Part shown: positions 19,899 through 37,955 of the stretch, piece after piece
How positions within the stretch are numbered: position 1 is the stretch's first letter
Layout: every line of letters begins with the position of its first letter
NCBI GenBank assembly: GCA_947586855.1
Contig: CANPXV010000001.1
Span: 81,350 to 145,349, forward strand
Direction: 5' to 3'
Length of the DNA: 64,000 nucleotides
Origin: an uncultured Clostridia bacterium
GTDB taxonomy: Bacteria > Bacillota > Clostridia > Christensenellales > CAG-314
The notes under the pieces: model-generated
Databases searched by the model: none
What the model was told of the DNA's origin: nothing
The model's input: only the letters and a program-made list of their open reading frames with translations
Made by a program: the position numbers and the translations under genes

Positions 19899-20055
19899 GC
19901 AAATTTTGCCACTTTGTCCCTTTTGTTTGGGCGAGCGAACGGTGCGTTGCGGAGGGAGGGTCGCCTTGTTGCGAAAAATATGCGCAAAAAGCCGTCAAAT
20001 TGCACCAAAAAAGCCCTCAAATTGAACAAAAACGCCGTTTGGACGGGCAAAATCT

Positions 20056-20084
20056 TTGACAGCAGCGGCAATCTGCGCTATAAT
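20056..20084 (+). promoter_or_regulatory. consensus sigma70-type promoter of the yhhQ-like operon
   Basis: TTGACA, a 17-nt spacer, then TATAAT. Confidence 0.65.
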
Positions 20085-20193
20085 CGAACTATGCAATAGG
20101 ATGTTGTCCTTGCCTAAACCATCCGCATTGCACTCGCTTGGCGAGAGGCCCCGCACAATACGCAGGGCGCACTAAAAAACAAGGAGTTTTTTT
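20085..20193 (+). ncRNA. structured 5' leader, possible preQ1-type riboswitch (class not determined)
   Basis: A leader of about 100 nt with hairpins GGATG..CATCC, CTCGC-ttg-GCGAG and GCCC..GGGC. It ends in CACTAAAAAACAAGGAG, which abuts the SD. The downstream gene family is often preQ1-regulated. Confidence 0.3.
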
Positions 20194-20940
20194 ATGAAAA
20201 AAATCAAAAAATTTTTTGACGAATACCGCATTTTGTTGCGGTCAACGCCGTCGGTGGTTGTGTGCGTGTTTGTGCTGTCGGTGTTTGTGATGAATTTGCT
20301 TGCCAACAAAAGTATCAACCTCAATGTGGATTGGCTGGCCCTCGATTGCGGCATAATCGTATCCTGGGTGGCCTTTTTGTGCATGGACGTGCTTACCAAA
20401 CACTTTGGGCCAAAGGCGGCCACGATGTTGTCGTTGTTTGCCATTGCCGTCAATCTGCTGGGCTGTTTGGTGATGTTTGTTGCGGGCACAATCGGGGGAA
20501 CCTGGGGCGCCTTCTACGACTTTGGCGAGCAACCCGTGATAAACGATGCGCTGGACGCCACCATCAGCGGCACCTGGTACGTGGTGATGGGCAGCACGGT
20601 GGCATTTGTGGCCTCCGCCGTGATAAACAACTTTGCCAATTGGGGCGTGGGCAGGCTGTTTTGCAAGCGTCCCGACGGCTTTGGGGCGTATGTGTGCCGC
20701 ACGTATGTGTCCACGGCCGTGGCGCAATTTGCGGATAACCTGATTTTTGCGCTCATCGTCAGTCACTTCTTCTTCGATTGGAGCATTGTGCAGTGCCTCA
20801 CCTGCGCTGCGACGGGCATGGTGGCCGAGCTGCTGTGCGAGGCGATCTTTTCGCCGTTGGGCTTTGCGGTGTGCAGGCATTGGCAGCGGCAAAATGTGGG
20901 CAAACAATATCTTGACTACATATCCGAGGTGGAAAAATGA
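20194..20940 (+). CDS. yhhQ: VUT-family (DUF165, YhhQ-like) queuosine-precursor transporter
   Basis: 248-aa polytopic membrane protein. Resembles E. coli YhhQ around FLCMDVLTKHFGPKAA and STAVAQFADNLIFALIV. Confidence 0.8.
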   Translation: MKKIKKFFDEYRILLRSTPSVVVCVFVLSVFVMNLLANKSINLNVDWLALDCGIIVSWVAFLCMDVLTKHFGPKAATMLSLFAIAVNLLGCLVMFVAGTIGGTWGAFYDFGEQPVINDALDATISGTWYVVMGSTVAFVASAVINNFANWGVGRLFCKRPDGFGAYVCRTYVSTAVAQFADNLIFALIVSHFFFDWSIVQCLTCAATGMVAELLCEAIFSPLGFAVCRHWQRQNVGKQYLDYISEVEK

Positions 20941-23024: not shown

Positions 23025-26000
23025 TTAATGTGAGATAGCGTAGTCGCCGATATCCAGAATTGCTCCGAAGTAGGGCGCACCGGCGCTTCCCGATACAGCA
23101 CCTGCCGACAAGTAAATACATACCTTGTTGTTATAAGCGTCCGCAGATTTTCCCATCCAATTTGAGCCAATAAATGTTCTCTGATCTACATCACCCCACG
23201 ATTTTGCACTTGCGGTTACTTTACCTGCTGTCCCAACTTGACTATAATAAGTTGTTATTCCGCTCTCAGTCGGATAGATAGAGTTATCCAGGTCTGTCGC
23301 CAGCCAACTATCGCCCATTTGTGCAAACAACAGATATTTACTTCCGTCTTTTTGTGTTATCTTGCGAGCCGTAGTAGTCAGTGAGTTGTGCATTGCAAAG
23401 GTAACAGGATTGTCACCGTAATCAAAGGTTGTTTTACCCGCTACATCCAGCGTGACCTTATCCTTGCCGTTGATCAAATCGCCGGGGCTGCAAATCATGA
23501 CGGCAATGACATTGAGATATTGGTTTTTGTCCTTATCTGCCGTATTATCGCCCTGGAACGAATGCATTGTGCCGTCTGCTGCTTTGACCCAACGAACAGT
23601 TTTGCCGACCTTGTTGAACAGATCTGTTTCAAGTTTACCACGCAACAGAGAAACAAGTGCAGCTGCATTGTTGGCGTCGTACCAGCTTTCGGCACCGGTT
23701 GCATATGCTTCCAGACGGCATTTGTCCTTGACCGTCAGGGTGGGGCCGCCAGTATCTGCTGTATTATACACGCCGTCGTTTTCAACTCTTTCTCCGTCGC
23801 ACAGGATGAACAACGGGCCGCCGGAGCCGACCATGTCGCAATCTTCAATTACGATGTTGCCACGCCAGGTGTAGACCATGTTGGAGTAGGCGTCGTAGAT
23901 CTTGGAGTGGACAACGTTGAATGCAGTTTGGAGATTGCCATAGTTGTCACCCACGATTGCAGTGAAGAAGTTGTTGGCGTTGATATTTTCGAAGTCGATG
24001 CAAGCATAGGTGTTGGCAAGCATGATTCCGCCGGGGGCAAAGTAGATGGTCTTGCCCTGATCGTAGTAGTCCTTTTGCGGGGTGGAGCCCTTCATGGCGA
24101 TGTTCTTGACCGTGAAGTGGTTGTCCTTGTGACCACGTGTAGAGTCGTTTGTGCCTTCTTTTGTGTTAGACAACAGCTGGAATACGCTCCAATGGGGCAC
24201 AGGGTCGCCGACCTTGGTGCTTGTTTCGTAGTCCACCAAAACTTGCAGCAAACGTCCGCCACGTTCCAAAATGTGTGTGAGGCTGAAATAGTTGCCGGAA
24301 ACGCTCACTTTGCAGGTGGCATAGAAACCTTTTTGCATGTTGAGTCCCAAACCGGTGTCAGGCTGAGTTGCACCGTTGTTCGCAATATCTGCTTTGTGGT
24401 CGAGCACACGGCAGTAGCTATAATATCCGTGTTCGCCGCTTATGACGCCGCTGTTGTCGCCGTCCTTCAACGAGCCGATAAGTTTTTCCTGCTGACGAGG
24501 CCAGCCTGCAAGAGATTGATAAGCCGCATAGTACAGCGGGTCACCCTCTTGCCAGAAGAAATCTTGCGGCATCTGCGTGGGATCCAGGTCGATGTCGTTG
24601 TGGAGAATTACCCAATCGACATTGCCGACATACTCGTACAGATAATTTTCGTCCGCAGCAAGTTTGACGGGGCTTGCGCCTGCCGAAAGCGTAACCGAGC
24701 CATCGTCACTCTGCGTAGCAGTTGCGCCCCACAGCGGTGCCCAAACCTTCTTTTGCAGGTCGTTCATCACGGACAGACCACGTTGGTCGTAGACGTTGTA
24801 GCCGCCCTTGACAAGTTTGAACTCGGCTGTGACCTTGTTCTGTACAGAGGAAGGAATCGAGTAACCACTACTCGTATCGAGCGATACAGTGAGGCGAACA
24901 AATGTGCCGTCTGCGATATCCTCGAACTTGTAGGTGTTGTTGTCTACTTTTACCCAATCACTTGTGTTGCCGCGGGTGAGATTGTGTGTTTTGAGCGAAG
25001 AATTTTCAAACGTTTCGCTCTCTTTGCGGAACTCTACTGTGGCAGTTGTGGTCGGGTTGTAGTCGTAGACAGCGTCAGCACCTTGGGGCTTGATACGTGC
25101 GATGGGACGGAAGATAAACTTGTTGACCGTGCCCACCTCGTAGACTTGATTGAGCTTCTTGAAGTAACCAAGACTGTCGCCCGTGTTGGTGGAGCGTTGC
25201 TTGTAGCTGTTGTAGGAGTCGGGTGCGCTGAACGACATCACGAGACCTTTCAGAGCCTCCTTCGATTCACCAACCAAATACAGGTTGCCCGTGACGGGAG
25301 TGCTAAGGTCGTAGGTTTTGGAGCCATTGTACCAAGTGGTTGCCTTGGCAAGGAAGTTTTTGAGTGCTTCGCTCGACTGTGCAGCAGTATTGAGGCTGGT
25401 GCCACTGCTGATAACGAAGTTTTGGACCTCTCCATTGTAGCTGAGTGTAACCAAATAGGTCACGGTGTTGTCCGCAGTCCATTTTGCATACAAGTGGGTT
25501 TCTGCGGTTACCGTTTTGTTTTCCGTCCATGGGTTACCCCAATCGCCGCCGGTGCCATCCTTGTCCCACCATCCTGCAAAGATGTAGCCGTTGCGTTTGG
25601 GTGTGGGCGGATTGTATTCTCCACCATTGCTTACCTTTGTGGTAAATGTCTCGCTGGCCTCATTGTTGAAGTGCAAAGTGACATTGAATACGTTGCTTGC
25701 GCTTGCGTCTTCTGTCCATTGAGCATAGAGGAACAAGTCGCTATCGATGATGTAGTTTTTTACCTTCTGGGCATCTTCGTTGAGCACAATGGGCCACGGA
25801 GCATGCTTTCCGGAAACAAAGTGATACCAATAGCAGAACGGGTTGTCTGAGGACAAAATCTTTGAGGGATCAAGCAATGCGCCATGCGTGTAGCCGGCTC
25901 TGGTGACAGGTTGAGATTTTGTGTCCAAAATCATCTTAATTTTACCCGTAATTGCCCGCAAATCTCCTACAGCACCTTCTTCATTGCCGCCCAAGTATTT

Positions 26001-29000
26001 CTTGACTATGTCCGTAAGCTTCGCCTTTAAGACTTCTCCCAAATCCGACTCTCCCTCGGCATCATAGTAGTAGCCCAACGAACCCGGCGCCCACGGCCAA
26101 GCAGTTTGCACAAATGACTTAGCTTCATTACCTTTACCCAGGGTGTCGCCTTGTTCTTTGATTTTGTCCAAAATGCCGTTGTAGACCAAGTCATTGATAA
26201 ACGTGGCACCCGTGGGCACTTCTGCGCCAATATTGGGTTGGCCGTTGCCCAGAATGATGTTTACACGGACGGAGTGATTCCACTTGGCGTAGAGGGTGAT
26301 TGCGATCTCTGCGTTATCCGGTTTTGCCTCGATAGTTTCCTTTTTGGTGGCGTCGGTTTGGTTTTCTTTGTCGCTGTACCAACCGGCAAACACGTAGCCC
26401 TTCAATGTGGGGACGTGCTCGGAGAGGTCCACCACGGTGCCCCAATCGACAAACAAACGCTCGGACTCGTCCATCAGGTTGTAGTCCAAAACGATTGTGA
26501 CCGTGCGGACTTGCCAATGAGCGTAGAAGTACTTGTAGCCGGGAACGTCGCCGACAGAGTAGTTGCCGTCCTGGGCGTTGCCGCCGATTTGATCGTCGAA
26601 CCAGCCGAGGAATTTGTTACCCTTGGCAAATTCGGCGTAGTAGTCTGCTCGTTCGAGTTGCGACTTCACATCACTGATCGAGATTTGCTTGTTGACATCG
26701 ACAGTTACCGTGATGACATGGTAGGCTGTAACTTCACTGTCGACATCTTCGATACCGGTGGAGAAGTAGACGGTAACTTGGCCCACCCACTTGGCGTAGA
26801 GGGTGACGTTGGCGTTGCCGATTGTGACTTGGTTGTCGCTGAATTTGTGGCCTTCGGTGCAACTCTCGTCGGTGTACCAGCCGTCGAACTTGTAGTTTTC
26901 ACGATCGATAGTTTCGGGAATATTTACTTTCTCGCCGCTGTAAAGGCCCTTTTCGCTGCCGCTCTTGTCTGTTACAACAGTGTCGTCTTGGCCGTCGAAG
27001 TTCCAATCGAATGTGACGGTGTACTTTGTCAACTCGGAATAGCGAGCGTACAGGTTGACGTCGGTTTCGCCAACTGTTTGATTTGTCCACTGTTCGCCGG
27101 CGGACTCATCGGTGAACCAGCCGTCGAATTTGTAACCACGGTTGGGGGTTACTTGGGGCAGGGTGAGCGTGTCGCCCTGGTTGACGGTGACGTTGTCGCT
27201 GCCGCTCAAGGAGCCGTTGGTGCCCACATGATAGGTTACTTTGCGAGGTATGGAGGCCTCGTTCCACTTGGCATACAGCGTCATATCGGCTGTGACAGGC
27301 GTTGTGTTTTCCCACTTGGTGCCTTCTTCTGTCTTGCCGTCCTTGGTGTACCAGCCGGCAAACGTATATTGTTTGTTGTCGGACTCGGGACGGCTGACGT
27401 TGGCGGGCAGCGTGATAGTGCCGTTGATGTCTACCGTTTGAGAGTCGGGGCCGTCCTTGGCGCCCTCGTAGTTGAGGTCGAACTTGACTGTGACTTGCTG
27501 CACCCACTTGGCGTACAGGGTGGTGTTGCCCGTTGTGGTTGTTGTTGCGCTCCACTTGGTTGTGTCAAGGGCGTCGCCCGTCTTGGTGTACCAGCCGTCG
27601 AAGCGGTAGCCTTGACGAGTGGGGTCGGTGGGCCAATTGTTTGCGCCCAGAGATTGTCCCTTATCCACCGTTACGGGGTCGTGAGGGGTGCCATCTGCGC
27701 CGTTGAGGTCGAAGGTGACGGTTGCCGTCTCTACCCAGCGGGCGTAGAGCGTTTTGTCGGTGGCAATGGCCGTGTTGGCGGTGTATTGTGTGCCGCCCTC
27801 GGTTTGCTCGTCGTACCAACCCACAAAGCGGTGATTTGCCCAAGAAGGATCGGCAGGCCAATTCTGTCCGAGAGTTGCGCCCTCGTTGACTGTCTTTTCG
27901 AGGTTATCCGTACCGTTGCCGTTGTAGTCGAAGGTGACAGTGACGGTTTTGTGCGACCAGTGCGCATAGTAGGTGACGTTTTGCGTGACGGGCGTGTTGG
28001 CGTCAACTTGCGTGCCGTTTGTTCTGTCGGTAAACCAACCCGCAAAGGTGTAGTGCTCGGGGGCCTTGTCGGTGCCGGCGGGCAGCTTGTCGCCGAGGGT
28101 TGTGTGCTCGTCGATGTTGTCGAACACCACCACTACATTGTCGGGGTTTTGGCCTGCGGGATAGTTGTAGTTGAATGTGACTGTGGCCTTGGTGACAATC
28201 CATCTGGCGTACAGGTTGTAGGTGTTTTCCGTGGCCGGGGTGGTGGCAAGCCATTTGTCGCCCCATTGGCCGTCGGTTGTGCCGTTTTTGGTGTACCAAC
28301 CGTCAAAACGATAGCCTTCGCGAGCGTCGGGTGTGGGCAGCTTGTCGCCCAAAGATTGACCCTTTTCTACCTTGGCGCTGATATCGGTGTGATCGCCGTC
28401 ATCAAGATAGAAGAATTGGAAGTTGGAGTAAGCGATGGCCGTCCACTTTGCGTAGAGGTTGAGGTTGCCCGTGACAAGGTCGTCCTCGTCCCATTGCTCG
28501 CCCCAATCGTCGTCGGTGCCATCCTTGGTGTACCAACCGTCAAAGTGATAGTCCTCTCTGGTGGGCTCGGTGGGGAATGTTACCGTGCTGCCGGCGTCGA
28601 CAGTTTTGTGCTCGACCTGAGAGCCGTTGTTGAATGCAACGTCGAATTGAACTTTGGCATTTTCTGTCCAGCGGGCGTACAGGTGCAGGTTCTCGTTGAC
28701 GGTCATATCCGCCGTCCACTTGGTGCCCCAAGCGCTGTCCTCGGTGGAGGTGCCGCCGTTGACCGTGTACCAACCGCCAAACGTGTGGTTGGTGTAGCCG
28801 GGCGTGGTAAGCTGGATCTTGTTGCCCTTTTCCACGCTGTACGAGTAGTCCGCCGTGGCGCCGTCGTTATAGTGCAGGGTGACGGTTACCTGGTTGGAGG
28901 GCTGAACGTCCCTGACCTTGACGGTGATGTTTACAACGCAGGATTTGCCGCCGTAGGTGACGGTGTAGGACGTTGCGCCCTCTTTGGAAAGGTCGGCTGT

Positions 29001-29240
29001 GGTGTGTGTAGCACCCCACTCTTTTACCGTTTTGGTGACGGGGTCGCCTTCCTCGAAGGTAACTTTCAGTTTAAGATTGTCGTAATCAATTACATTGTTG
29101 TCGCCGAGATAGAACTCTGTCTGGGCGTCAACGACTTCGATCTTTGTGACAACCTCATCCTTGCTGCACGCCGCAATTGTGGGCAACACAAATGCGATGA
29201 GCATGACAAGCGCAATCAAAAGTGAAAGCCTTTTTTTCAT
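23025..29240 (-). CDS. 2,071-aa surface lipoprotein with 12 Listeria-Bacteroides-type repeats and a large non-repeat C-terminal region
   Basis: Signal peptide MKKRLSLLIALVMLIAFVLPTIAAC (lipobox IAAC). There are 12 modules of the type Y-x-F-x-G-W-[YF]-T...L-Y-A-[KR]-W. The last ~850 aa are non-repetitive. Confidence 0.9.
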   Translation of the reverse strand: MKKRLSLLIALVMLIAFVLPTIAACSKDEVVTKIEVVDAQTEFYLGDNNVIDYDNLKLKVTFEEGDPVTKTVKEWGATHTTADLSKEGATSYTVTYGGKSCVVNITVKVRDVQPSNQVTVTLHYNDGATADYSYSVEKGNKIQLTTPGYTNHTFGGWYTVNGGTSTEDSAWGTKWTADMTVNENLHLYARWTENAKVQFDVAFNNGSQVEHKTVDAGSTVTFPTEPTREDYHFDGWYTKDGTDDDWGEQWDEDDLVTGNLNLYAKWTAIAYSNFQFFYLDDGDHTDISAKVEKGQSLGDKLPTPDAREGYRFDGWYTKNGTTDGQWGDKWLATTPATENTYNLYARWIVTKATVTFNYNYPAGQNPDNVVVVFDNIDEHTTLGDKLPAGTDKAPEHYTFAGWFTDRTNGTQVDANTPVTQNVTYYAHWSHKTVTVTFDYNGNGTDNLEKTVNEGATLGQNWPADPSWANHRFVGWYDEQTEGGTQYTANTAIATDKTLYARWVETATVTFDLNGADGTPHDPVTVDKGQSLGANNWPTDPTRQGYRFDGWYTKTGDALDTTKWSATTTTTGNTTLYAKWVQQVTVKFDLNYEGAKDGPDSQTVDINGTITLPANVSRPESDNKQYTFAGWYTKDGKTEEGTKWENTTPVTADMTLYAKWNEASIPRKVTYHVGTNGSLSGSDNVTVNQGDTLTLPQVTPNRGYKFDGWFTDESAGEQWTNQTVGETDVNLYARYSELTKYTVTFDWNFDGQDDTVVTDKSGSEKGLYSGEKVNIPETIDRENYKFDGWYTDESCTEGHKFSDNQVTIGNANVTLYAKWVGQVTVYFSTGIEDVDSEVTAYHVITVTVDVNKQISISDVKSQLERADYYAEFAKGNKFLGWFDDQIGGNAQDGNYSVGDVPGYKYFYAHWQVRTVTIVLDYNLMDESERLFVDWGTVVDLSEHVPTLKGYVFAGWYSDKENQTDATKKETIEAKPDNAEIAITLYAKWNHSVRVNIILGNGQPNIGAEVPTGATFINDLVYNGILDKIKEQGDTLGKGNEAKSFVQTAWPWAPGSLGYYYDAEGESDLGEVLKAKLTDIVKKYLGGNEEGAVGDLRAITGKIKMILDTKSQPVTRAGYTHGALLDPSKILSSDNPFCYWYHFVSGKHAPWPIVLNEDAQKVKNYIIDSDLFLYAQWTEDASASNVFNVTLHFNNEASETFTTKVSNGGEYNPPTPKRNGYIFAGWWDKDGTGGDWGNPWTENKTVTAETHLYAKWTADNTVTYLVTLSYNGEVQNFVISSGTSLNTAAQSSEALKNFLAKATTWYNGSKTYDLSTPVTGNLYLVGESKEALKGLVMSFSAPDSYNSYKQRSTNTGDSLGYFKKLNQVYEVGTVNKFIFRPIARIKPQGADAVYDYNPTTTATVEFRKESETFENSSLKTHNLTRGNTSDWVKVDNNTYKFEDIADGTFVRLTVSLDTSSGYSIPSSVQNKVTAEFKLVKGGYNVYDQRGLSVMNDLQKKVWAPLWGATATQSDDGSVTLSAGASPVKLAADENYLYEYVGNVDWVILHNDIDLDPTQMPQDFFWQEGDPLYYAAYQSLAGWPRQQEKLIGSLKDGDNSGVISGEHGYYSYCRVLDHKADIANNGATQPDTGLGLNMQKGFYATCKVSVSGNYFSLTHILERGGRLLQVLVDYETSTKVGDPVPHWSVFQLLSNTKEGTNDSTRGHKDNHFTVKNIAMKGSTPQKDYYDQGKTIYFAPGGIMLANTYACIDFENINANNFFTAIVGDNYGNLQTAFNVVHSKIYDAYSNMVYTWRGNIVIEDCDMVGSGGPLFILCDGERVENDGVYNTADTGGPTLTVKDKCRLEAYATGAESWYDANNAAALVSLLRGKLETDLFNKVGKTVRWVKAADGTMHSFQGDNTADKDKNQYLNVIAVMICSPGDLINGKDKVTLDVAGKTTFDYGDNPVTFAMHNSLTTTARKITQKDGSKYLLFAQMGDSWLATDLDNSIYPTESGITTYYSQVGTAGKVTASAKSWGDVDQRTFIGSNWMGKSADAYNNKVCIYLSAGAVSGSAGAPYFGAILDIGDYAISH

Positions 29241-31539: not shown

Positions 31540-33842
31540 CGATTGGCCTCCGCGTCCTTGCGACGTTTGCTGCGTTTCTCCTTGGAGGGCTTGGCGCCGC
31601 CCTCACCGCCTGATGTGCCGCCCTCGACGGGTATCGGCTCCACCTCGCTGCCGTTGATGACGGACATGTAGAATTGTTCCAGACTCTGGCCGGAGGCCTC
31701 CATCTCGTGCACGTCACGCACGCATTGGATCTGACCCTTGCGGATGATGGCTATGCGGTCGCAGATACGCTCCACCACGTCGATGATGTGGCTGCTGAAA
31801 AACACAATGTTGCCCGCCTCGGCGTGCTCCCTCATGCACTCCTTCACCTGAAAGATGCTGTTGGGGTCCAGACCGGTGAGCGGTTCGTCCAAGATCCACA
31901 CCTTGGGGTTGTGGATGAGCGCCGACATTATCGTAACTTTTTGCTTCATTCCGTGCGAGAAGGTGCGGATGGGGTTGTCCAGCGCAGCGGTCAGTTCAAA
32001 ACGCTCCGCCATGCGAGAAAGCCTCTCGTCACGATCCTGTTTGGACACCTCGTACAAATCGGCGATGTAGTTGATATACTCACGTGCTGTCAGCCGCTCG
32101 TACAGTGCGTAGTGGTCGGGCACAAAGCCTATTTGGCGCTTGGCCATGACGGATTGCGTTGCTACGTCGTAGCCGCACACCTCGATGGCACCCTCGGTGA
32201 TGGTCTGTATGCCCACGATGCTCTTGATGATGGTGGATTTGCCTGCGCCGTTGGGGCCCAAAAAGCCGTAAATCTCGCCGCCGCACACTTCCAGATCGGC
32301 GTCCTTGACGGCATAGACGTCACTGCTGCCGTAGCGCTTGGTAAATTTTTTGAGAACGAGTTTGTTTGCGTTTTCCATGTTCATTGGCTCCTCGATGCTT
32401 CTGCCTGCCAGCTTGACCTCCAAGGCAAGCCTGTCGGCATGTATTTTTTTGTTGCGTTCCACAATATCCAACCAGCCCGCAGCGGCGTTGTAGCCCAATT
32501 CGTAGATGAACCACATGCCGAACGCAAAGCCGTAGTACACAATAAGAAACAAAAACTGATACAGCGGATAGAAGATGAATTTCAGTTCTCCTATGCTGAA
32601 ACTCCACACAAAGTTGCGGGTGTCCCTTGCCCACTGACCAAGTTTGTCCACTATGAAGTCACTGTTGAGGAAGAAGTAGTCTACGCTGGCATTGTAGTTG
32701 GTAAACCAGGCGTTTACTATCAACATCAACACAAAGTACACCGAAAACCCTATCATGCTGTACTTGAATTCCTTCAAGCGGGGGCGGCGGAATATGCCCA
32801 GCCCCACCACCAACAGCGGCATAAAGAACGCTTGATAGTGGTTCATGTAGAACAGCCATATGCTGATGCCGAGAATGCTGATACCCTCGTTGTAGTTGGG
32901 CATTATCATCGCCAAAAATGCGCCCAACACGTTGATAAAGTAGGTAAAGTAGAAAAACTTTTTCCACTTGAATGTGAGGCACAGCGGCGTGATGTACATG
33001 GCGGTGTTGCACAAGTGCAAGGGCAGCGCCGTCACCCAGCTGGGGCCGAAGAAATCGGCAAAACGGTGGTAAAAACTGAAATTGAGCAGGCCCAGCCAGG
33101 CGTAGTACATCATGGCAAAACGCTTGGTGTCCATAGGCTTGTCTCTCAGCAGCACAAACAGCACGATGGGTATGATGATCGCAGGATACAGTATCATGCG
33201 GTGGTAGATGTTGAAATCGTGCGGGTTCATGGTAAACTTGTTCGGGTCGGACATCACCTGCAAGCCGTAGCTGGGGAATGCGGCAAACAGGCAGCCCACC
33301 ACCGCCAACGCAAACCATATCCACTCCTTTTTGCGCAAAATGACCTTGTCAAGATTGACAACGGTGTACACAACGCAGAAGCCCAAACCAAGGCCCGTTT
33401 CCAACCCGATAAGCATGGCTCGGACGTCAAACGTTTGCAGGGCCTCGCCGCCCGTGATGGCCAGCACGTGGCCGGGAAACATCACCGTGTTAAACACAAA
33501 TATGGGCAGCGCAACGTATGCGATCAGCGCAGGCAGCGTGCGCACCTTGAAGAAGGGCGCCAACACCACCAACATCTCCGCTGCGTAGGCAAACCACACC
33601 TGAAACAACGCCACCGTGATCAGCTCCTTGGAGCCGATAGTGTCGTTGGGTTGCCTGTTGATCATGTTGGCAATGACGTCCTGTCCCAACATATAGCGGA
33701 AGAACAACGCCGTCGCCAACAACAACGAAAATGTTTTTAGTGCGATGTTTAGTTTTGTCGGAAGTTTTTTGTTGAGCACCAACCCAACTGCGATAACCGC
33801 CGCAGCGCCTGCCGCACCGACCAGATAGTAGACTGCTGTCAT
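31536..33842 (-). CDS. 768-aa fusion of an N-terminal polytopic membrane domain (~470 aa) with a C-terminal ABC ATPase
   Basis: AAGGAGAGG SD. NBD motifs GPNGAGKST, FSHGMKQKV, VWILDEP and FFSSHI. Gly-rich then Lys/Arg-rich C-terminal tail. Confidence 0.9.
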   Translation of the reverse strand: MTAVYYLVGAAGAAAVIAVGLVLNKKLPTKLNIALKTFSLLLATALFFRYMLGQDVIANMINRQPNDTIGSKELITVALFQVWFAYAAEMLVVLAPFFKVRTLPALIAYVALPIFVFNTVMFPGHVLAITGGEALQTFDVRAMLIGLETGLGLGFCVVYTVVNLDKVILRKKEWIWFALAVVGCLFAAFPSYGLQVMSDPNKFTMNPHDFNIYHRMILYPAIIIPIVLFVLLRDKPMDTKRFAMMYYAWLGLLNFSFYHRFADFFGPSWVTALPLHLCNTAMYITPLCLTFKWKKFFYFTYFINVLGAFLAMIMPNYNEGISILGISIWLFYMNHYQAFFMPLLVVGLGIFRRPRLKEFKYSMIGFSVYFVLMLIVNAWFTNYNASVDYFFLNSDFIVDKLGQWARDTRNFVWSFSIGELKFIFYPLYQFLFLIVYYGFAFGMWFIYELGYNAAAGWLDIVERNKKIHADRLALEVKLAGRSIEEPMNMENANKLVLKKFTKRYGSSDVYAVKDADLEVCGGEIYGFLGPNGAGKSTIIKSIVGIQTITEGAIEVCGYDVATQSVMAKRQIGFVPDHYALYERLTAREYINYIADLYEVSKQDRDERLSRMAERFELTAALDNPIRTFSHGMKQKVTIMSALIHNPKVWILDEPLTGLDPNSIFQVKECMREHAEAGNIVFFSSHIIDVVERICDRIAIIRKGQIQCVRDVHEMEASGQSLEQFYMSVINGSEVEPIPVEGGTSGGEGGAKPSKEKRSKRRKDAEANR

Positions 33843-34022
33843 TTCCTCTCCTTGAATTTTGACATCAAAAAAATCCGCCTATCGCCCATATTAGTTTGGA
33901 CAATTGTACGGATTTAGTTGCACTACCGCCCACAAATTGCTGCAAGGCTTTGCCAAGGTGCGCACTTGAATGGATGTGCCCTTGACGGCGAGCCTGCCGT
34001 TTTGCATGCGGTACTATTTAGT

Positions 34023-34490
34023 TCAGGACAAAAAACAAACCTTGTGTCGGTAGGATACCGCCGCACAAAGTTTGTTGCTAACGCAAAAATCATCGCCGCA
34101 AACATATTTGCAGTTTGCACCGATGAATTGCGAACTATGCGCCGCATTGGACGACGTGATAACCCACGTCGAAACACACCACAGCGCAACAAAAATGAGA
34201 CCTAACAGGCTATATTGGGCATACCCCCCCCCGTGGCGAATTTGCTCAAACGCAAAAACTATGCCTCGCTCCAACAGGCGCACGGTTTGGGGCGTGACGA
34301 TGGACGAATTGTGCTCTACGTCCTTCATCACAAGGCTCAGCAACAACAGCAACAAAAACATAGCAAGAAAACTGACAGCCTTGCACAGGCAGCTGCCGAG
34401 TTTTTCTACCTTGATCTGCAATGATTGCGAGCGCTCGTTTTGGATTATGCGAGAGCCGTAAACAAATTTGTGCATTTTTGCCACGTCCAT
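34023..34490 (-). CDS. doubtful 155-codon ORF (two hydrophobic segments) containing a G9 tract
   Basis: It is the only sizeable ORF downstream of the 34610-34637 promoter. It has no SD and atypical composition, so it may not be coding. Confidence 0.2.
   Translation of the reverse strand: MDVAKMHKFVYGSRIIQNERSQSLQIKVEKLGSCLCKAVSFLAMFLLLLLLSLVMKDVEHNSSIVTPQTVRLLERGIVFAFEQIRHGGGYAQYSLLGLIFVALWCVSTWVITSSNAAHSSQFIGANCKYVCGDDFCVSNKLCAAVSYRHKVCFLS
34224..34232. repeat. homopolymer tract C9 (G9 on minus strand)
   Basis: Direct read: 9 consecutive c. On the minus strand this encodes HGGGY in the doubtful ORF. Confidence 0.95.
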
Positions 34491-34495
34491 TGCCG

Positions 34496-34579
34496 AAAAT
34501 TTGGGGGTTTGCCCTCAAACTTGGGGATTTTGACCTCAAATTCGGAAATTTGCGCCCAAATTCGAGATTTTTCTCCCCC
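34496..34579 (-). repeat. four phased direct repeats of 20-22 nt
   Basis: Minus strand reads GGGGGAGAAAAATCTCGAATTT / GGGCGCAAATTTCCGAATTT / GAGGTCAAAATCCCCAAGTTT / GAGGGCAAACCCCCAAATTTT, lying immediately downstream of the predicted TSS. Confidence 0.75.
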
Positions 34580-34609
34580 GAAAAGTTAAAATCACACTTT
34601 GACGACATA

Positions 34610-34637
34610 ATTATAAACCTTTTGTACAATTTGTCAA
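34610..34637 (-). promoter_or_regulatory. consensus sigma70-type promoter inside the coding-poor island
   Basis: Minus strand reads TTGACA, a 16-nt spacer, then TATAAT. Confidence 0.6.
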
Positions 34638-34934
34638 CAATTTAAGAGTATTTCAAGCATTTTTAACAGTGAACGTTTGCAGAATTTTTTCGCATTTGCA
34701 GCCGATATTCGACTTTTTGCGACAATTTTGTTATGTTTTCACCCTATCCGGCGGCCTGCGTTACCGTAACGGGGTGGGATTTTGGTGCATACGCCTCCGA
34801 AATCGCCCGTCGTCGCCGCCCGACCGCACACCGAAAGCCTCACCGACGCCGTTTGCGCTTGTGGCTGAATTTTACCTGTCATCAACCCCGCCGCCCTTGG
34901 ACGCTGCGAGCAAATAAACGTTCGGTTCTATAAT

Positions 34935-35057
34935 AAATGTCGAGGTACGAGAGCGATCAAAACAAAAAAACAAATGCTTCAACCATATATTGAGAGTGCA
35001 AACCTCTTTATGTTTTTTCTGTGAGAAATGTCGAGGCGCGGGACAATCAAAACAAAC
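34935..35057. repeat. pair of ~32-bp direct repeats 91 bp apart
   Basis: aaatgtcgaggtacgagagcgatcaaaacaaa (34935-34966) versus aaatgtcgaggcgcgggacaatcaaaacaaa (35026-35057). Confidence 0.5.
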
Positions 35058-35075
35058 ACTTCACCTGAATTTCGA

Positions 35076-35141
35076 GACTGCGGCCCATTTTGCCGCAGTC
35101 CCAAAACAAAAGGTGGAAGTGCACATTTGTACGCTTCCACC
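35076..35141 (-). terminator. tandem hairpins terminating the giant-gene/926-aa operon
   Basis: Minus strand reads GGTGGAAG-cgtacaaatgtgca-CTTCCACC followed by TTTTGTTTTGG. A second 9-bp hairpin follows: GACTGCGGC-aaaatgg-GCCGCAGTC. Confidence 0.65.
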
Positions 35142-35174
35142 TGACACAGCTTTACGCCGAGCTATTGGTTTTGG

Positions 35175-37955
35175 TTATTGTTTGTTGTCATCATCCAATT
35201 CGTCTTTTTCCGTTTCCTCGACGGTCTTGGATGTCACAAACAGACCGGGGGCAATTTCTATCGGGGCAGAGTTGTCTTCTTCTGTCTTGGCCTTGCCTTG
35301 GTCGAAAATAGCTTCGTCGGCGGCAAACTTGATGTCTCGCTTGGCAAGTCCTTTCTTTATCAGCTCCACAATGCCTTCGTAGGGCATGTAGTAGTCTTCT
35401 GCCTCTCGCTCGATACGCTCGATGCCCATCCGTTCCATTGCCATTGCAACAAGCTCAACTGCGTACTTGGCACGCTTGCCGCTCTTGATACGATACATGG
35501 CGGGGGTATCAAAGTTGGACGGAGTGTCGGAGACATCTTCCAGTTGATACTTGCTATCCACAAACTCTGTCACGTCCAACGGCAGGAAGAGGCACAGCGT
35601 CTTGCCGCGGAAGGACAATTTTGCAACGACGATCTTGCCCACCTTGAAGGTCTCGCGCTTCCAGCTCATGCGGCACTTGGACTTTTTGTAATTGAGTATC
35701 TCGTTCTTGATGTCGTTATACCAGAATTTGACATCATCTTCCGACTGGATCAACCTTGCGGTAAAGCTGCGATCGTAGCGCAATCTGCCGGCTTCCACCG
35801 ACTCCTCCTCGATGATGATGGGCTCGCGCTGCTTGCGCTCCTCCTCGGGCAGGGCAACAACGTTGATACGGTAGCCGACCGTTCTGTCCTGATACACTAC
35901 CGAAACAGTGGGAGAGCCTTCCTTGTCCATATCGGGCGGCAACACAGTGTAGTCCTGCACCTCCTCGGTGAAAGGCTCGGCATTGTAGCTGGCGGTAACC
36001 ACCAATCCGTCGTGATTGAGGGCGTCGCCCACAAAGAATTCCTTTTGCACGTTGTCGGTGTTGAGGGACAGCGAAACAAGCTCGCGAATCACCCGTTCGG
36101 GCACTTCGGGCACCTCGGTTGCGGCGACTTCTTTTTCCGTTTCCTCGACGGTCTTGGATGTCACAAACAGACCGGGGGCAATTTCTATCGGGGCAGAGTT
36201 GTCTTCTTCTGTCTTGGCCTTGCCTTGGTCGAAAATAGCTTCGTCGGCGGCAAACTTGATGTCTCGCTTGGCAAGTCCTTTCTTTATCAGCTCCACAATG
36301 CCTTCGTAGGGCATGTAGTAGTCTTCTGCCTCTCGCTCGATACGCTCGATGCCCATCCGTTCCATTGCCATTGCAACAAGCTCAACTGCGTACTTGGCAC
36401 GCTTGCCGCTCTTGATACGATACATGGCGGGGGTATCAAAGTTGGACGGAGTGTCGGAGACATCTTCCAGTTGATACTTGCTATCCACAAACTCTGTCAC
36501 GTCCAACGGCAGGAAGAGGCACAGCGTCTTGCCGCGGAAGGACAATTTTGCAACGACGATCTTGCCCACCTTGAAGGTCTCGCGCTTCCAGCTCATGCGG
36601 CACTTGGACTTTTTGTAATTGAGTATCTCGTTCTTGATGTCGTTATACCAGAATTTGACATCATCTTCCGACTGGATCAACCTTGCGGTAAAGCTGCGAT
36701 CGTATCGCAATCTGCCGGCCTCGACCGATTCTTCCTCGATGATGATGGGCTCGCGCTGCTTGCGCTCCTCCTCGGTGAGCTCGCTGACGGAAATTGTGTA
36801 GTATGCGGTTTGACCGTCAAATTTGACGGCAACTTCCTTGTCGCCCGCAACGGACATATCCGGCTTGATCACATAGCAACCGACCAACTCATTTTCGGCG
36901 GTGATATGGTCGTACAGCTGCTGATCGACAACGGCAAACTCCGCAACGGTTTCGCTTGTGGGGTCAAGATCGTATTGAGCGTTGATCACAAGGCCGTTAC
37001 AATCGAATTCATCGCCCTCAGTAAACTGACATCTTACGGCCGCAAGGTCCAAGGTGACGCCCACAAGTTTGCGCTCGGCAGGTTCTTCTTGCGGCTGAAC
37101 GTCCTCTTCTTTGGAGGAAACAACGATCATGTACATGGCCGATTTATCCTTGTAGCAAACAGTGACGGCAGGCTTGCCCTCTTGCGACAGGTCGGGAAGG
37201 ATGACATAGCAATCGTCGGTATCCTTTTCGGAAAGGGCAGCATACTCTTCCGCAGAGAGGAGGCTGAACTCGATAATAGTTTCGGCAAGGGGTTCCTCGC
37301 TGTAGTTGGCGGTAACCATCAGGCCGTCGCAATTGAACTCGTCGCCAACGACGAAATCCCGTTGCACCACTTCCAGATTGAGGTCCAACCCCACAAGAGT
37401 ACGCACGGAATCCGTTTCCTGCACGGGCGTCTCGACGACAACGGGTGCAACGACGGGTGCGGGAGCTTCTTCGTGCTCGCCCACGGAAATGACGTACAGC
37501 GCTTGCTGTCCCTGGTAGCACACCGTAACAGACACCTTGCCCTCGACGGATGTGTCGGGATAGAGCGCATAGCACACGTCCAGAGGGCCTTTTTCCTGAA
37601 GCATTTCCAGAGTTTCGGGTGTGAACACCGCCACCTTGGAGATAGGTTCGGACATGGGGTCCAGATTGTAGTTTGCCGTTACTACCAGCCCGTCGCAGTT
37701 GAACTGCTCGCCCACATCGAACGTGCGCTTGACCATGGATAGGTCGAGAGTCAGTCCGGTGAGTATACGTTCGCTGGGCTTGGTGTCGACGACGATTTTG
37801 TTGGTGCCGACACGCTTGATAAGTATTGCAAAGACAAGTACCATAAACATTATCAATGCAACTTGCACAATCAAAAGCCAAAACAGTGCGCTTTCGAGAG
37901 GCCAATCGAATTCCCAATTGAAGATCTTCATTTTGTCTGACAACAGATTAAACAT
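35175..37955 (-). CDS. 926-aa membrane-anchored protein: TM, three Ig-like (Big_3-like) modules, domain X, a fourth Ig-like module, domain X again
   Basis: N-terminal helix LFWLLIVQVALIMFMVLVFAILI. The ~95-aa modules follow L.G[LV].L....V...F..G[DE].F[ND]C.GL.VTA.Y...P. Two copies of a ~210-aa Lys/Glu-rich domain (RLRYDRSFTARLIQSEDDVKFWYNDIKNEILNYKK..). The start lies 20 nt after the giant ORF stop. Confidence 0.85.
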   Translation of the reverse strand: MFNLLSDKMKIFNWEFDWPLESALFWLLIVQVALIMFMVLVFAILIKRVGTNKIVVDTKPSERILTGLTLDLSMVKRTFDVGEQFNCDGLVVTANYNLDPMSEPISKVAVFTPETLEMLQEKGPLDVCYALYPDTSVEGKVSVTVCYQGQQALYVISVGEHEEAPAPVVAPVVVETPVQETDSVRTLVGLDLNLEVVQRDFVVGDEFNCDGLMVTANYSEEPLAETIIEFSLLSAEEYAALSEKDTDDCYVILPDLSQEGKPAVTVCYKDKSAMYMIVVSSKEEDVQPQEEPAERKLVGVTLDLAAVRCQFTEGDEFDCNGLVINAQYDLDPTSETVAEFAVVDQQLYDHITAENELVGCYVIKPDMSVAGDKEVAVKFDGQTAYYTISVSELTEEERKQREPIIIEEESVEAGRLRYDRSFTARLIQSEDDVKFWYNDIKNEILNYKKSKCRMSWKRETFKVGKIVVAKLSFRGKTLCLFLPLDVTEFVDSKYQLEDVSDTPSNFDTPAMYRIKSGKRAKYAVELVAMAMERMGIERIEREAEDYYMPYEGIVELIKKGLAKRDIKFAADEAIFDQGKAKTEEDNSAPIEIAPGLFVTSKTVEETEKEVAATEVPEVPERVIRELVSLSLNTDNVQKEFFVGDALNHDGLVVTASYNAEPFTEEVQDYTVLPPDMDKEGSPTVSVVYQDRTVGYRINVVALPEEERKQREPIIIEEESVEAGRLRYDRSFTARLIQSEDDVKFWYNDIKNEILNYKKSKCRMSWKRETFKVGKIVVAKLSFRGKTLCLFLPLDVTEFVDSKYQLEDVSDTPSNFDTPAMYRIKSGKRAKYAVELVAMAMERMGIERIEREAEDYYMPYEGIVELIKKGLAKRDIKFAADEAIFDQGKAKTEEDNSAPIEIAPGLFVTSKTVEETEKDELDDDNKQ
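35203..35848. repeat. intragenic duplication, copy 1 (C-terminal domain X)
   Basis: Positions 35203-35777 are identical base for base to 36130-36704 (575 bp). The next 71 bp carry 5 mismatches. The offset is exactly 927 bp (309 codons). Confidence 0.95.
36130..36775. repeat. intragenic duplication, copy 2 (internal domain X)
   Basis: See copy 1; aligned by direct reading of both stretches. Confidence 0.95.

Follow-up and report, generated by a model that had tools for sequence, protein, structure and literature searches.

The aprE and ermC leaders contain hairpins that act in cis to stabilize these Gram-positive mRNAs or to tune their translation. Some promoters are activated by bent upstream DNA: examples are plc of C. 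perfringens (Katayama et al. 1999, EMBO J 18:3442) and a phage promoter of B. subtilis (McAllister & Achberger 1989), as cited in PMC3518907 and PMC9825172. Here we describe a promoter and leader from an uncultured gut Clostridia bacterium that resemble both kinds of system. They lie within a 64,000-nucleotide stretch of DNA (the window).

A first-pass annotation of the window described 1.3 kb around this promoter as coding-poor, with no convincing gene. Instead, this stretch is the promoter, the leader, and the first gene of an ABC-transporter operon (Table 1). If read from the ATG at 34475, the ORF behind the leader encodes a small protein with many homologs: a profile search found 26 cluster representatives at E <= 1e-3, including 22 at E <= 1e-10. 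Nearly all of these are about 150 amino acids long, and except for a few truncated members they align end to end. (By BLASTP, the small protein matches P0002 with E = 4e-13.) An N-terminal motif (FxYGSRVIENER) is conserved, and so is a C-terminal motif (VSYRxKVCFLS, followed by the stop codon) across the representatives. Within the codons for VSYRHKVCFLS, the window and locus L001 have five synonymous differences, and 0 of 12 residues are changed. In L005–L007, the third positions of these codons vary freely; in addition, L006 and L007 each have a single conservative replacement (S to A). The gene order (PHP gene, small ORF, TMEM164-ABC gene) is conserved as well. The TMEM164-ABC gene is also found 3' of the small ORF in L011, L018, L020, and L023, and at every locus with enough flanking sequence, the small gene lies between the consensus promoter and the TMEM164-ABC gene. 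Because it has homologs of matching length, conserved termini, synonymous substitutions, and conserved synteny, these comparisons of sequences show that the ORF is a real and conserved protein-coding gene.

The first-pass annotation overlooked this gene because it chose the wrong start codon. It considered a 155-codon ORF from the ATG at 34490, which is ACG in four strain contigs, and it reported that the ORF had no Shine-Dalgarno sequence. But GGACGUGG lies 5 nt 5' of the ATG at 34475, and its predicted duplex with the anti-Shine-Dalgarno sequence (-7.8 kcal/mol) is within the range for the orthologs (-4.3 to -15.6 kcal/mol). Neither the family nor the members of its cluster have a name, and the protein has no matches in Pfam or NCBIfam. 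The AlphaFold2 model is all-helical (pLDDT 73), and a fold comparison of this model to PDB gave no matches at E <= 0.001. A scan of JGI metagenomes for relatives gave 144 pattern matches, none of which was a relative.

Table 1. Features of the operon and its surroundings, in the order of the minus strand. Coordinates are positions in the window.
Feature	Coordinates	Strand	Evidence
Intrinsic terminator belonging to the Big_3 gene upstream (926 aa), AGGTGGAAG...CTTCCACCT then TTTGTTTT	35103..35142	-	Inverted repeat; formed in minimum-energy fold
Second strong hairpin, GGGACTGCGGC...GCCGCAGTCTC, no T-run	35073..35102	-	Inverted repeat; formed in fold
Imperfect tandem duplication of ~91 bp	34918..35100		Repeat comparison
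G+C-rich non-coding spacer, no credible ORF	34745..34917		Low-complexity translations; no Rfam match; strain alignment
Upstream bent-DNA block with phased A-tracts (predicted)	34658..34778		Ranks sixth for curvature in the window (ratio 0.779)
Conserved 33-nt element, AAATGCG...TTCACTGTT	34665-34697		Common to L005, L007, L008, L011, L018, L020
Sigma-70/SigA-type promoter, TTGACA-16-TATAAT (almost certain)	34610..34637	-	12/12 match; same hexamers and spacing in 12 lineages
5' leader, ~127 nt (predicted start)	34476..34603	-	Comparison with orthologs
Array of four 20–22-nt units, source species only	34496..34579	-	Repeats, RNA fold, periodicity/curvature, strains
Small conserved gene; encodes a membrane protein of 150 aa with two predicted TM helices	34023..34475	-	Homologs; AlphaFold2 model
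Long closed stem-loop within the spacer that precedes the ABC gene; base helix covaries between lineages	33921..34016	-	Flank pairing test; 13 individual folds
Conserved two-tier intrinsic terminator, AAATCCGT...CGGATTTTTTT	33867..33915	-	Folds; conservation
Downstream gene, fusion of a TMEM164-like membrane domain and an ABC ATPase, 768 aa	31536..33842	-	Pfam PF14808 and PF00005

The near-perfect promoter that the first-pass annotation had pointed out on the minus strand was borne out. TTGACA (34637–34632), a 16-nt spacer, and TATAAT (34615–34610) give a score of 12/12, and this is the single such site within 33500–35500. TTGAC[A/T]-16-TATAAT is present in 12 lineages, although the flanking sequences have diverged; the leaders, from the -10 box to the ATG, are only 26% identical among lineages. 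Because the hexamers and the 16-nt spacing have been kept despite this divergence, we regard the promoter as almost certainly genuine, and it almost certainly transcribes the four repeats, as had been proposed. We infer that transcription starts at around 34603. The transcript would include, in order, the gene for the 150-aa protein, a structured spacer of ~180 nt with a terminator, and the TMEM164-ABC gene. By eye, we found no convincing sigma-54, SigD, or internal promoters before the ABC gene. Several of the leaders contain words that are similar to Spo0A boxes (TGNCGAA).

The four tandem units that were annotated within the leader are also genuine. They are 22, 20, 21, and 21 nt long (34579–34558, 34557–34538, 34537–34517, and 34516–34496), and they span about +24 to +107 of the mRNA, relative to the inferred start. 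Their pairwise identities are 60–76%. A degenerate pattern for the unit has four matches in the 64 kb, all within the array, while 0.6 matches would be expected; 100 shuffles never yielded that many. No dispersed copies of the unit, or of the 33-nt upstream element, were found elsewhere in the window. The distance from the -10 box to the ATG is 134 nt in the source species and 52–96 nt in the other lineages, and the units are absent from all 11 of the other lineages that we examined. Because only the source species has a leader of 134 nt, and because the surplus corresponds to the array, the comparison among lineages indicates that the repeats are a species-specific tandem expansion within the untranslated 5' leader. 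The first-pass annotation had named repeats missing from related genomes, and a conserved coding gene identified by homology, as outcomes that would refute its view, and we observed both. Within the species, all four units are kept in 11/11 strain contigs. Among these strains, the array is the fastest-evolving and most variable piece of the locus: 8.1% of columns are variable in the leader, versus 1.5% in the ORF, and because of indels, the leaders are 134, 135, or 136 nt long. We considered that the array might be translated as part of a 127-aa ORF (34246–34629), but these indels break the reading frame.

We tentatively favor the view that the selected property of the array is RNA structure that acts in cis in the 5' UTR. 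The array's RNA has a predicted folding energy of -34.7 kcal/mol (z = -4.5), and none of 200 shuffles was as stable. The predicted structure has two hairpins, A (34578–34523) and B (34522–34497). The first-pass annotation had suggested a small G:C hairpin for every unit. This does not hold: the units on their own have folding energies of -0.3 to -3.5 kcal/mol, which is no better than shuffles, and the stable pairing is between units. Homogeneous arrays with four copies of any one unit fold worse (-13 to -29 kcal/mol), and the native order of the units is the most stable of the 24 possible orders. None of 2,000 arrays with permuted G and C bases matched the stability of the native fold, and only 13 of 2,000 synthetic four-copy arrays with 30% divergence did so, although quasi-palindromic tandem repeats fold well trivially and these null models may miss the real duplication history. 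Both hairpins are predicted in 6/6 haplotypes, which represent few independent events, and no ortholog has the array. Hairpin B is predicted in all haplotypes despite at least six clustered changes, which affect both arms.

Our proposal is that the units diverged together, so that the junctions of neighboring units (C-rich, AAUUU, G-rich) would pair, with the A-runs in the loops, and the 5' UTR would thereby contain a pair of stable hairpins. These hairpins might tune the stability or the translation of the small protein's mRNA. Sequestration of the Shine-Dalgarno sequence or protection of the 5' end is not directly implied, because the predicted hairpins leave the Shine-Dalgarno sequence and the AUG uncovered and begin 23 nt from the predicted 5' end. 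If the array is folded within the whole leader, then z is only -1.8. In favor of RNA structure, the leaders of the orthologs are also, on average, more structured than shuffles: their mean z is about -1.0, with 3 of 11 below -2. The fast evolution of the array within the species speaks against selection for RNA structure, as does its absence from relatives, which would also fit a weakly constrained or neutral repeat. Also, a model based on RNA structure does not need the array's exact 10.4-bp A/T lattice or its extreme predicted curvature.

The first-pass annotation had remarked that the units are two helical turns apart, and this is a genuine physical property of the array, as seen from the periodicity and the predicted curvature. 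The array region has the strongest 10–11-bp periodicity of AA/TT in the window (4.2, as compared to a 99th percentile of 1.7). Furthermore, 34461–34581 is the most curved 120-bp segment in the 64 kb: its ratio of end-to-end distance to contour length is 0.487, whereas the median is 0.968 and the 1st percentile is 0.818, as computed with a wedge model that was checked only on synthetic A-tract controls. The array has four AnTn tracts and no TnAn tracts. None of 300 base-shuffled arrays reached the native curvature, and the curvature is held or raised in all haplotypes (ratios of 0.37–0.45).

The main alternative is that the selected property might be the bending of the DNA. Eight phased AnTn tracts just past the start site would form a static bend, which would supplement the bent DNA upstream of the promoter and would alter the promoter's output via the wrapping of RNA polymerase, the positioning of plectonemes, or a nucleoid protein. 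In 11/11 orthologous loci, the locus-wide maximum of curvature is 24–84 bp upstream of the -35 box, and upstream bent DNA is a known activator of Gram-positive promoters, as cited in the articles named above (PMC3518907, PMC9825172). However, in the known cases and in all of the orthologs, as with the block at 34658–34778 in the window, the bend is upstream of the -35 box, whereas the array is downstream of the start. Bending also leaves the consistent complementarity between C-rich left sides and G-rich right sides of the units unexplained. We consider it possible, but unlikely, that bending is what is being selected. The predicted bend of the array adds to the bent DNA that flanks the promoter in every relative, and it may contribute alongside RNA structure, or it may be selected instead. 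Because the same sequence has both an unusually stable fold and the window's most curved DNA, the array is well suited for separating RNA-level from DNA-level effects.

Another explanation, which we think has a still smaller chance of being correct, is a near-neutral minisatellite that arose when replication slippage amplified an ancestral leader motif similar to AAATTTCGG. The folding and the curvature would be by-products without a function. This would explain why the array is absent from all of the other lineages and why no other segment varies as much among strains, and the L005 and L008 leaders have related single motifs (CAAATTTCGG and AAAATTTTCGC). However, the copy number is constant across the strain contigs. 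The units must be old, because they are just 60–75% identical, yet they retain the phasing of A/T and the complementarity of G/C. A minisatellite also fits less well with the native fold being more stable than 1,987 of the 2,000 simulated diverged arrays, and with the retention of curvature in every haplotype.

It is very unlikely that the array is a set of operators, as the first-pass annotation had suggested when it proposed binding sites for a regulator. The units could be viewed as four imperfect palindromes (C-rich, AAWTTT, G-rich) that bind a dimeric regulator on one face of the helix, which would block initiation or elongation. The sequence itself shows a 21-bp spacing of the centers and a partial dyad symmetry, and the location just past the start site would suit a roadblock repressor. 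But the dyad symmetry is weak (5/8 per half-site pair), there is no conserved core word in common with the orthologous promoters, the unit's pattern is not found elsewhere in the 64 kb, and none of the window's ORFs that we compared to Pfam is a regulator. The absence of the units from the other 11 lineages also does not support a conserved array of binding sites.

The first-pass annotation also raised the possibility of iterons or of a regulatory RNA that titrates a protein. Tandem repetition and G-rich motifs are all that would point to a trans-acting sRNA of the Csr/Rsm type or to plasmid-type iterons, and we find these ideas scarcely credible. Csr/Rsm titrating sRNAs do have repeated G-rich motifs in the transcript. 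However, this array contains a single GGA and lacks a terminator of its own; none separates it from the ORF, into which the transcript would continue. A scan of 33500–35500 against Rfam 15 at E <= 10 gave only noise, with no RNA family matching the array region, and the gathering scores gave only two tRNAs in the whole window. Like the iterons of plasmids, the units are tandem direct repeats of ~21 bp that are two helical turns apart. But these units are diverged and are not conserved in relatives, and the array is in the leader of a chromosomal operon whose neighbors encode an adhesin (Big_3) and an ABC transporter. There is no rep gene, cluster of DnaA boxes, origin feature, or plasmid context.

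The spacer that separates the small gene from the ABC gene is also structured. Cognate flanks of its stem-loop pair at -20.4 kcal/mol, versus -12.9 kcal/mol for non-cognate flanks, and none of 20,000 permutations reached the cognate mean. The terminator that follows is the best-conserved non-coding piece of the locus (64% mean identity), and its stem (AAAUCCGU/ACGGAUUU) and U7 are present in 13/13 sequences. It ends ~11 nt before the Shine-Dalgarno sequence of the ABC gene. The spacer also contains two CAACUAAAU boxes. We rejected a ribosome-mediated attenuator of the trp or erm type: if the first 22 nt of the RNA after the small ORF are masked, then the terminator is intact in 13/13 sequences, and if 30 nt are masked, then it is intact in 12/13. 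A more ambitious idea is that the small protein with its SYRxKV[C/S]FLS-stop, the covarying stem-loop of ~95 nt, and the terminator form a new module, a sensor plus a regulated terminator, with the repeat leader as an extra layer of tuning. We are quite doubtful of this. If it is true, then the amount of transcription that extends into the TMEM164-ABC exporter genes would be set by this module across a clade of uncultured gut Clostridia.

Upstream of the promoter, the first-pass annotation listed a pair of 32-bp direct repeats at 34935 and 35026. There is a repeat here, but it is weaker than that: it comprises 27 nt at 78% identity (34926/35017) and 33 nt at 73% identity (34967/35049), both of which belong to one old duplication (Table 1). 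A core of ~30 nt from this duplication (CTCGACATTTATTATAGAACC) is also found 3' of the PHP gene in L005. The spacer at 34745–34917 is colinear in all of the strain contigs of the source species. We rejected the other ORFs in 34640–35174, whose translations are of low complexity and whose sole Pfam match (GGN) is spurious. We also considered that this region might contain a remnant of a PHP gene, but when the window was searched by tblastn with two PHP proteins, there were no matches at E < 0.1.

Overall, we view the finding as real yet fairly ordinary: an apparent gap of 1.3 kb has become an annotated unit. The array by itself matters little, as it elaborates a 5' leader in a single lineage. 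We see three leads. The first is an unnamed family of small membrane proteins that has a conserved C-terminal peptide and is always paired with a TMEM164-ABC transporter. The second is an RNA structure that lies between the two genes and covaries, along with a terminator that is conserved in sequence; together they correspond to no Rfam family. The third is bent DNA, which has been conserved at one promoter in at least 12 lineages.

Unlike the repeats, the small gene with its spacer can be compared to systems in which an upstream ORF serves as a monitor (MifM-yidC2 and SecM-secA) or a leader peptide serves as an attenuator (trp and bmrB-bmrCD), in that a small upstream ORF with a membrane segment and a highly conserved C-terminal peptide is followed by a structured RNA and a terminator and then by a transporter gene. 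However, the ORF described here encodes 150 amino acids, the transporter's Shine-Dalgarno sequence is ~170 nt away and is not sequestered, and the terminator does not melt in 12/13 sequences if RNA adjacent to the stop codon is masked. As with the bent promoters of plc and of the B. subtilis phage, AnTn tracts recur every 10–11 bp beside a consensus promoter in a Firmicute, and the bent upstream block is conserved in all of the orthologous loci. In contrast to those promoters, the array is within the transcribed leader, and its G/C complementarity would be superfluous for bending. The closest parallel for the array may be the 5'-UTR stem-loops of Gram-positive bacteria: as predicted from the sequence, it would form stable hairpins that follow a strong SigA-type promoter and precede the start codon, and these would act in cis and vary between lineages, but these hairpins are built from four tandem repeat units.

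The first-pass annotation described the 1.3-kb island that holds the repeat array as coding-poor, and it dismissed a 155-codon ORF there because it saw no SD. However, the island contains a conserved gene. From its next ATG (34475), this ORF encodes a membrane protein of 150 amino acids that has homologues, an outcome that the annotation itself had named as counting against its reading. GGACGUGG lies 5 nt 5' of this ATG, with anti-SD pairing similar to that of the orthologues' sites; four strain contigs have ACG in place of the upstream ATG (34490). Searching a word index yielded a protein at 29% identity that is exactly 150 amino acids long, begins with the same residues, and ends with 12 identical ones. 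When 1.84 billion representatives were searched with a profile, 26 proteins had E <= 1e-3; all are close to 150 amino acids except for a few truncated members. The family alignment begins with MxxFxYGSRVIENER, continues with two hydrophobic helices and a variable tail, and has (V/I)SY(R/K)xKV(C/S)FLS immediately before the stop. Within this C-terminal motif, the codons of the window and of L001 (a contig from another lineage) differ only synonymously, and L005-L007 show, in addition, single conservative changes (S->A), so the constraint is on the peptide. The AlphaFold2 model is all-helical (pLDDT 73) and has no structural neighbour in PDB; neither Pfam, NCBIfam, nor the source databases gave the family a name. 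Inside the gene, a nine-G run on the minus strand (34224-34232) codes for HGGGY and is identical in 11/11 strain contigs; in L007, an eleven-G run lies just 5' of the start codon.

Features of the small-gene locus and of other sites discussed (window coordinates; the L-numbers in this table are contigs from other lineages).
Feature	Position	Strand	Description
8642-aa ORF	37976-63904	minus	MBG_2 domains in C-terminal part
926-aa Big_3 protein gene	35175-37955	minus	3' of 8642-aa ORF
Big_3 gene terminator	35142-35103
~91-bp tandem duplication	34918-35100
Upstream curved block	34658-34778
33-nt upstream element	34665-34697	minus	AAATGCG(T)AAAAAAAGTC..TTGTTCACTGTT; ~27 nt upstream of -35
Promoter -35	34637-34632	minus	TTGACA
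Promoter -10	34615-34610	minus	TATAAT; 16-nt spacer
Most curved 120 bp	34461-34581
Repeat array	34579-34496	minus	four units, head-to-tail
Array unit 1		minus	GGGGGAGAAAAATCTCGAATTT
Array unit 2		minus	GGGCGCAAATTTCCGAATTT
Array unit 3		minus	GAGGTCAAAATCCCCAAGTTT
Array unit 4		minus	GAGGGCAAACCCCCAAATTTT
Hairpin A (predicted)	34578-34523		"C-rich + AAUUU + G-rich" junction of units 1/2 pairs with junction of units 2/3
Hairpin B (predicted)	34522-34497		units 3/4
Small gene	34475-34023	minus	150-aa membrane protein
Conserved intercistronic RNA	33867-34022	minus	also L001, L005-L008, L011, L014, L016, L018, L020, L022
Spacer part 1			short single-stranded tail with CAACUAAAU, immediately 3' of stop codon
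Spacer part 2			one long closed stem-loop
Spacer part 3			short linker with second CAACUAAAU-like box
Spacer part 4			two-tier terminator AAAUCCGU...ACGGAUUUUUUU, just 5' of ABC gene's SD
2071-aa protein	23025-29240	minus	ten Flg_new (Listeria-Bacteroides repeat) domains
Second most curved site	19949-20069	plus
Promoter beside it	20056-20084		TTGACA-17-TATAAT

The near-perfect promoter that had been reported on the minus strand is present, with a 12/12 match; the two remaining promoter-like sites in 33500-35500 match at just 9/12 each. TTGAC[A/T]-16 nt-TATAAT occurs in 12 lineages, and L015 is a thirteenth, with TTGACA-16-TATACT (by eye). Identity across lineages is 65% for the promoter, 48% for the ORF, and only 26% for the leaders. 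On this comparative evidence we assign the promoter to the small gene. The 33-nt upstream element is common to seven lineages whose small proteins share merely 25-35% identity; a regulator may bind here, or this may be the core of the upstream bent DNA. Words matching the Spo0A-box consensus TGNCGAA, perhaps by chance, also occur near the promoters (window 34491-34497, plus strand; the L007 leader; the L001 upstream region).

We compared the locus with contigs from 12 other lineages (L001, L005-L008, L011, L014-L016, L018, L020, L022); two of these loci are from MAGs labelled "uncultured Clostridia bacterium." In every locus with enough flank, the small gene is followed by the ABC gene (a TMEM164-like domain fused to an ABC ATPase). 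A PHP-domain gene lies 5' of the small gene in most of the other lineages; in the window's species, it is replaced by the Big_3 protein gene and the 8642-aa ORF, whose first 1500 amino acids have no Pfam match. A clear terminator closes the Big_3 gene. No credible ORF lies in the 450 nt from there to the promoter region, nor does Rfam match anything in them. The second 32-bp repeat pair that the annotation described does exist but is weaker than claimed: two stretches with 73-78% identity, which are parts of one old tandem duplication, imperfect and ~91 bp long. A ~30-nt core of it, CTCGACATTTATTATAGAACC, recurs just 3' of the PHP gene in L005 (5716-5745), suggesting a remnant of the intergenic region of an ancestor. 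Strain contig L004 departs from the window in its first 31 nt, upstream of about 34812; every other strain contig is colinear there, so an assembly-end artefact is the probable cause. Downstream of the ABC genes, the window encodes the 2071-aa protein.

A spacer of 171-235 nt separates the small gene from the ABC gene in all lineages. Folded one by one, these spacers share one architecture of four parts (table). MAFFT and RNAalifold recovered only the invariant terminator stem; in an alignment-free test, the base of the long stem covaries, with -20.4 kcal/mol for cognate flanks versus -12.9 kcal/mol for non-cognate flanks, and 0/20000 permutations reached the cognate mean. In strain L002 (1412-1470, or window ~33950-34005), ~55 nt of the apical stem-loop are swapped for unrelated sequence, and the fold energy of the whole spacer is identical to the window's (-57.0 kcal/mol). 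Of the non-coding pieces, the terminator block is conserved best (64% mean identity). By eye, there is no room for a promoter between it and the ABC gene, so transcription of the transporter genes probably relies on read-through. The evidence does not support a simple trp-like switch mediated by ribosomes in the spacer. The element has no match in Rfam, and we consider it a candidate for a new cis-regulatory or processing structure.

The four tandem units that the annotation claimed are also present. A degenerate unit pattern has 4 matches in 64 kb, all of them in the array (0.6 expected). The array begins 23 nt 3' of the expected transcription start, and the distance from the end of the -10 to the ATG is 134 nt in the window's species versus 52-96 nt in other lineages. 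The 21-nt units are absent from every other lineage's leader, although one related motif (CAAATTTCGG or AAAATTTTCGC, for example) occurs in some. Such absence is a second outcome that the annotation had named as counting against its reading. So the array is a species-specific insertion in the small gene's leader, and the proposal of conserved regulator sites is not supported. An array of operators for a regulator is possible but weakly supported; its dyad symmetry is just 5/8. All four units are kept in 11/11 contigs of the species (six haplotypes). Among these strains, 8.1% of leader columns vary, all within the array and its 3' flank, versus 1.5% for the ORF and 1.4% for the promoter and the upstream 110 nt. 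The array could also be a near-neutral minisatellite, which would fit its rapid change and restricted distribution; we think this is unlikely.

We propose that the array is transcribed within the 5' UTR of the small protein's mRNA and would act in cis. We can effectively exclude an independent small RNA and iterons; the suggested regulatory or titrating RNA and iteron roles found no support, and the Rfam scan that had been recommended gave no match in the island. Nor do the units form hairpins individually: folded alone, they are no more stable than shuffles. Instead, the 84-nt array folds at -34.7 kcal/mol (z = -4.5; 0/200 shuffles are as stable) into two predicted hairpins with the A-runs in loops. 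Permuting only G and C, with A/T positions fixed, gives a mean of -22.3 kcal/mol, and 0/2000 reach the native value; synthetic four-copy arrays with 30% divergence average -19.4 kcal/mol, and 13/2000 reach it. Perfect 4x arrays of any one unit are less stable than the native mixture, and none of the other 23 unit orders is as stable as the native one. Both hairpins are kept in 6/6 haplotypes, hairpin B with at least 6 clustered differences. The orthologous leaders are more structured than shuffles on average (mean z about -1.0; 3/11 below -2). We tentatively favor RNA structure as the selected property, because no other reading explains the G/C complementarity between units and because it survives the tandem-repeat nulls.

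The main rival, which we rate as less probable, is that DNA bending was selected. Only bending explains the exact helical phasing: the AnTn tracts recur every ~10.4 bp, and the array region has the highest AA/TT 10-11-bp periodicity in the window. In a wedge model (Bolshoy-Trifonov parameters; checked on synthetic controls), no other 120 bp in the 64 kb are as curved as those that cover the array, and this curvature is lost in shuffled arrays and retained in all haplotypes. Bending would also fit a conserved trait of this promoter: in 11/11 orthologous loci, the peak of curvature for the whole locus falls in a segment 24-84 bp upstream of it, and the window likewise has an upstream curved block. 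But relative to the start site, the array is on the "wrong" side. In the window, the second most curved site is directly upstream of another consensus promoter, so bent DNA beside strong promoters looks like a habit of this genome. That promoter, within 19949-20195 on the plus strand, is followed by a ~110-nt leader, with no match in Rfam, and a Vut_1 (PF02592) transporter gene at 20194.

With RNA structure still preferred, what the finding comes down to is a 5' leader that is specific to one species, built from repeats, and unusual in its predicted RNA folding and DNA bending. It precedes a conserved small membrane-protein gene that had gone unannotated. The array itself can be filed under kinds already known, as a structured 5' leader or as promoter-proximal bent DNA; bent DNA beside strong promoters in this genome agrees with known Gram-positive cases.
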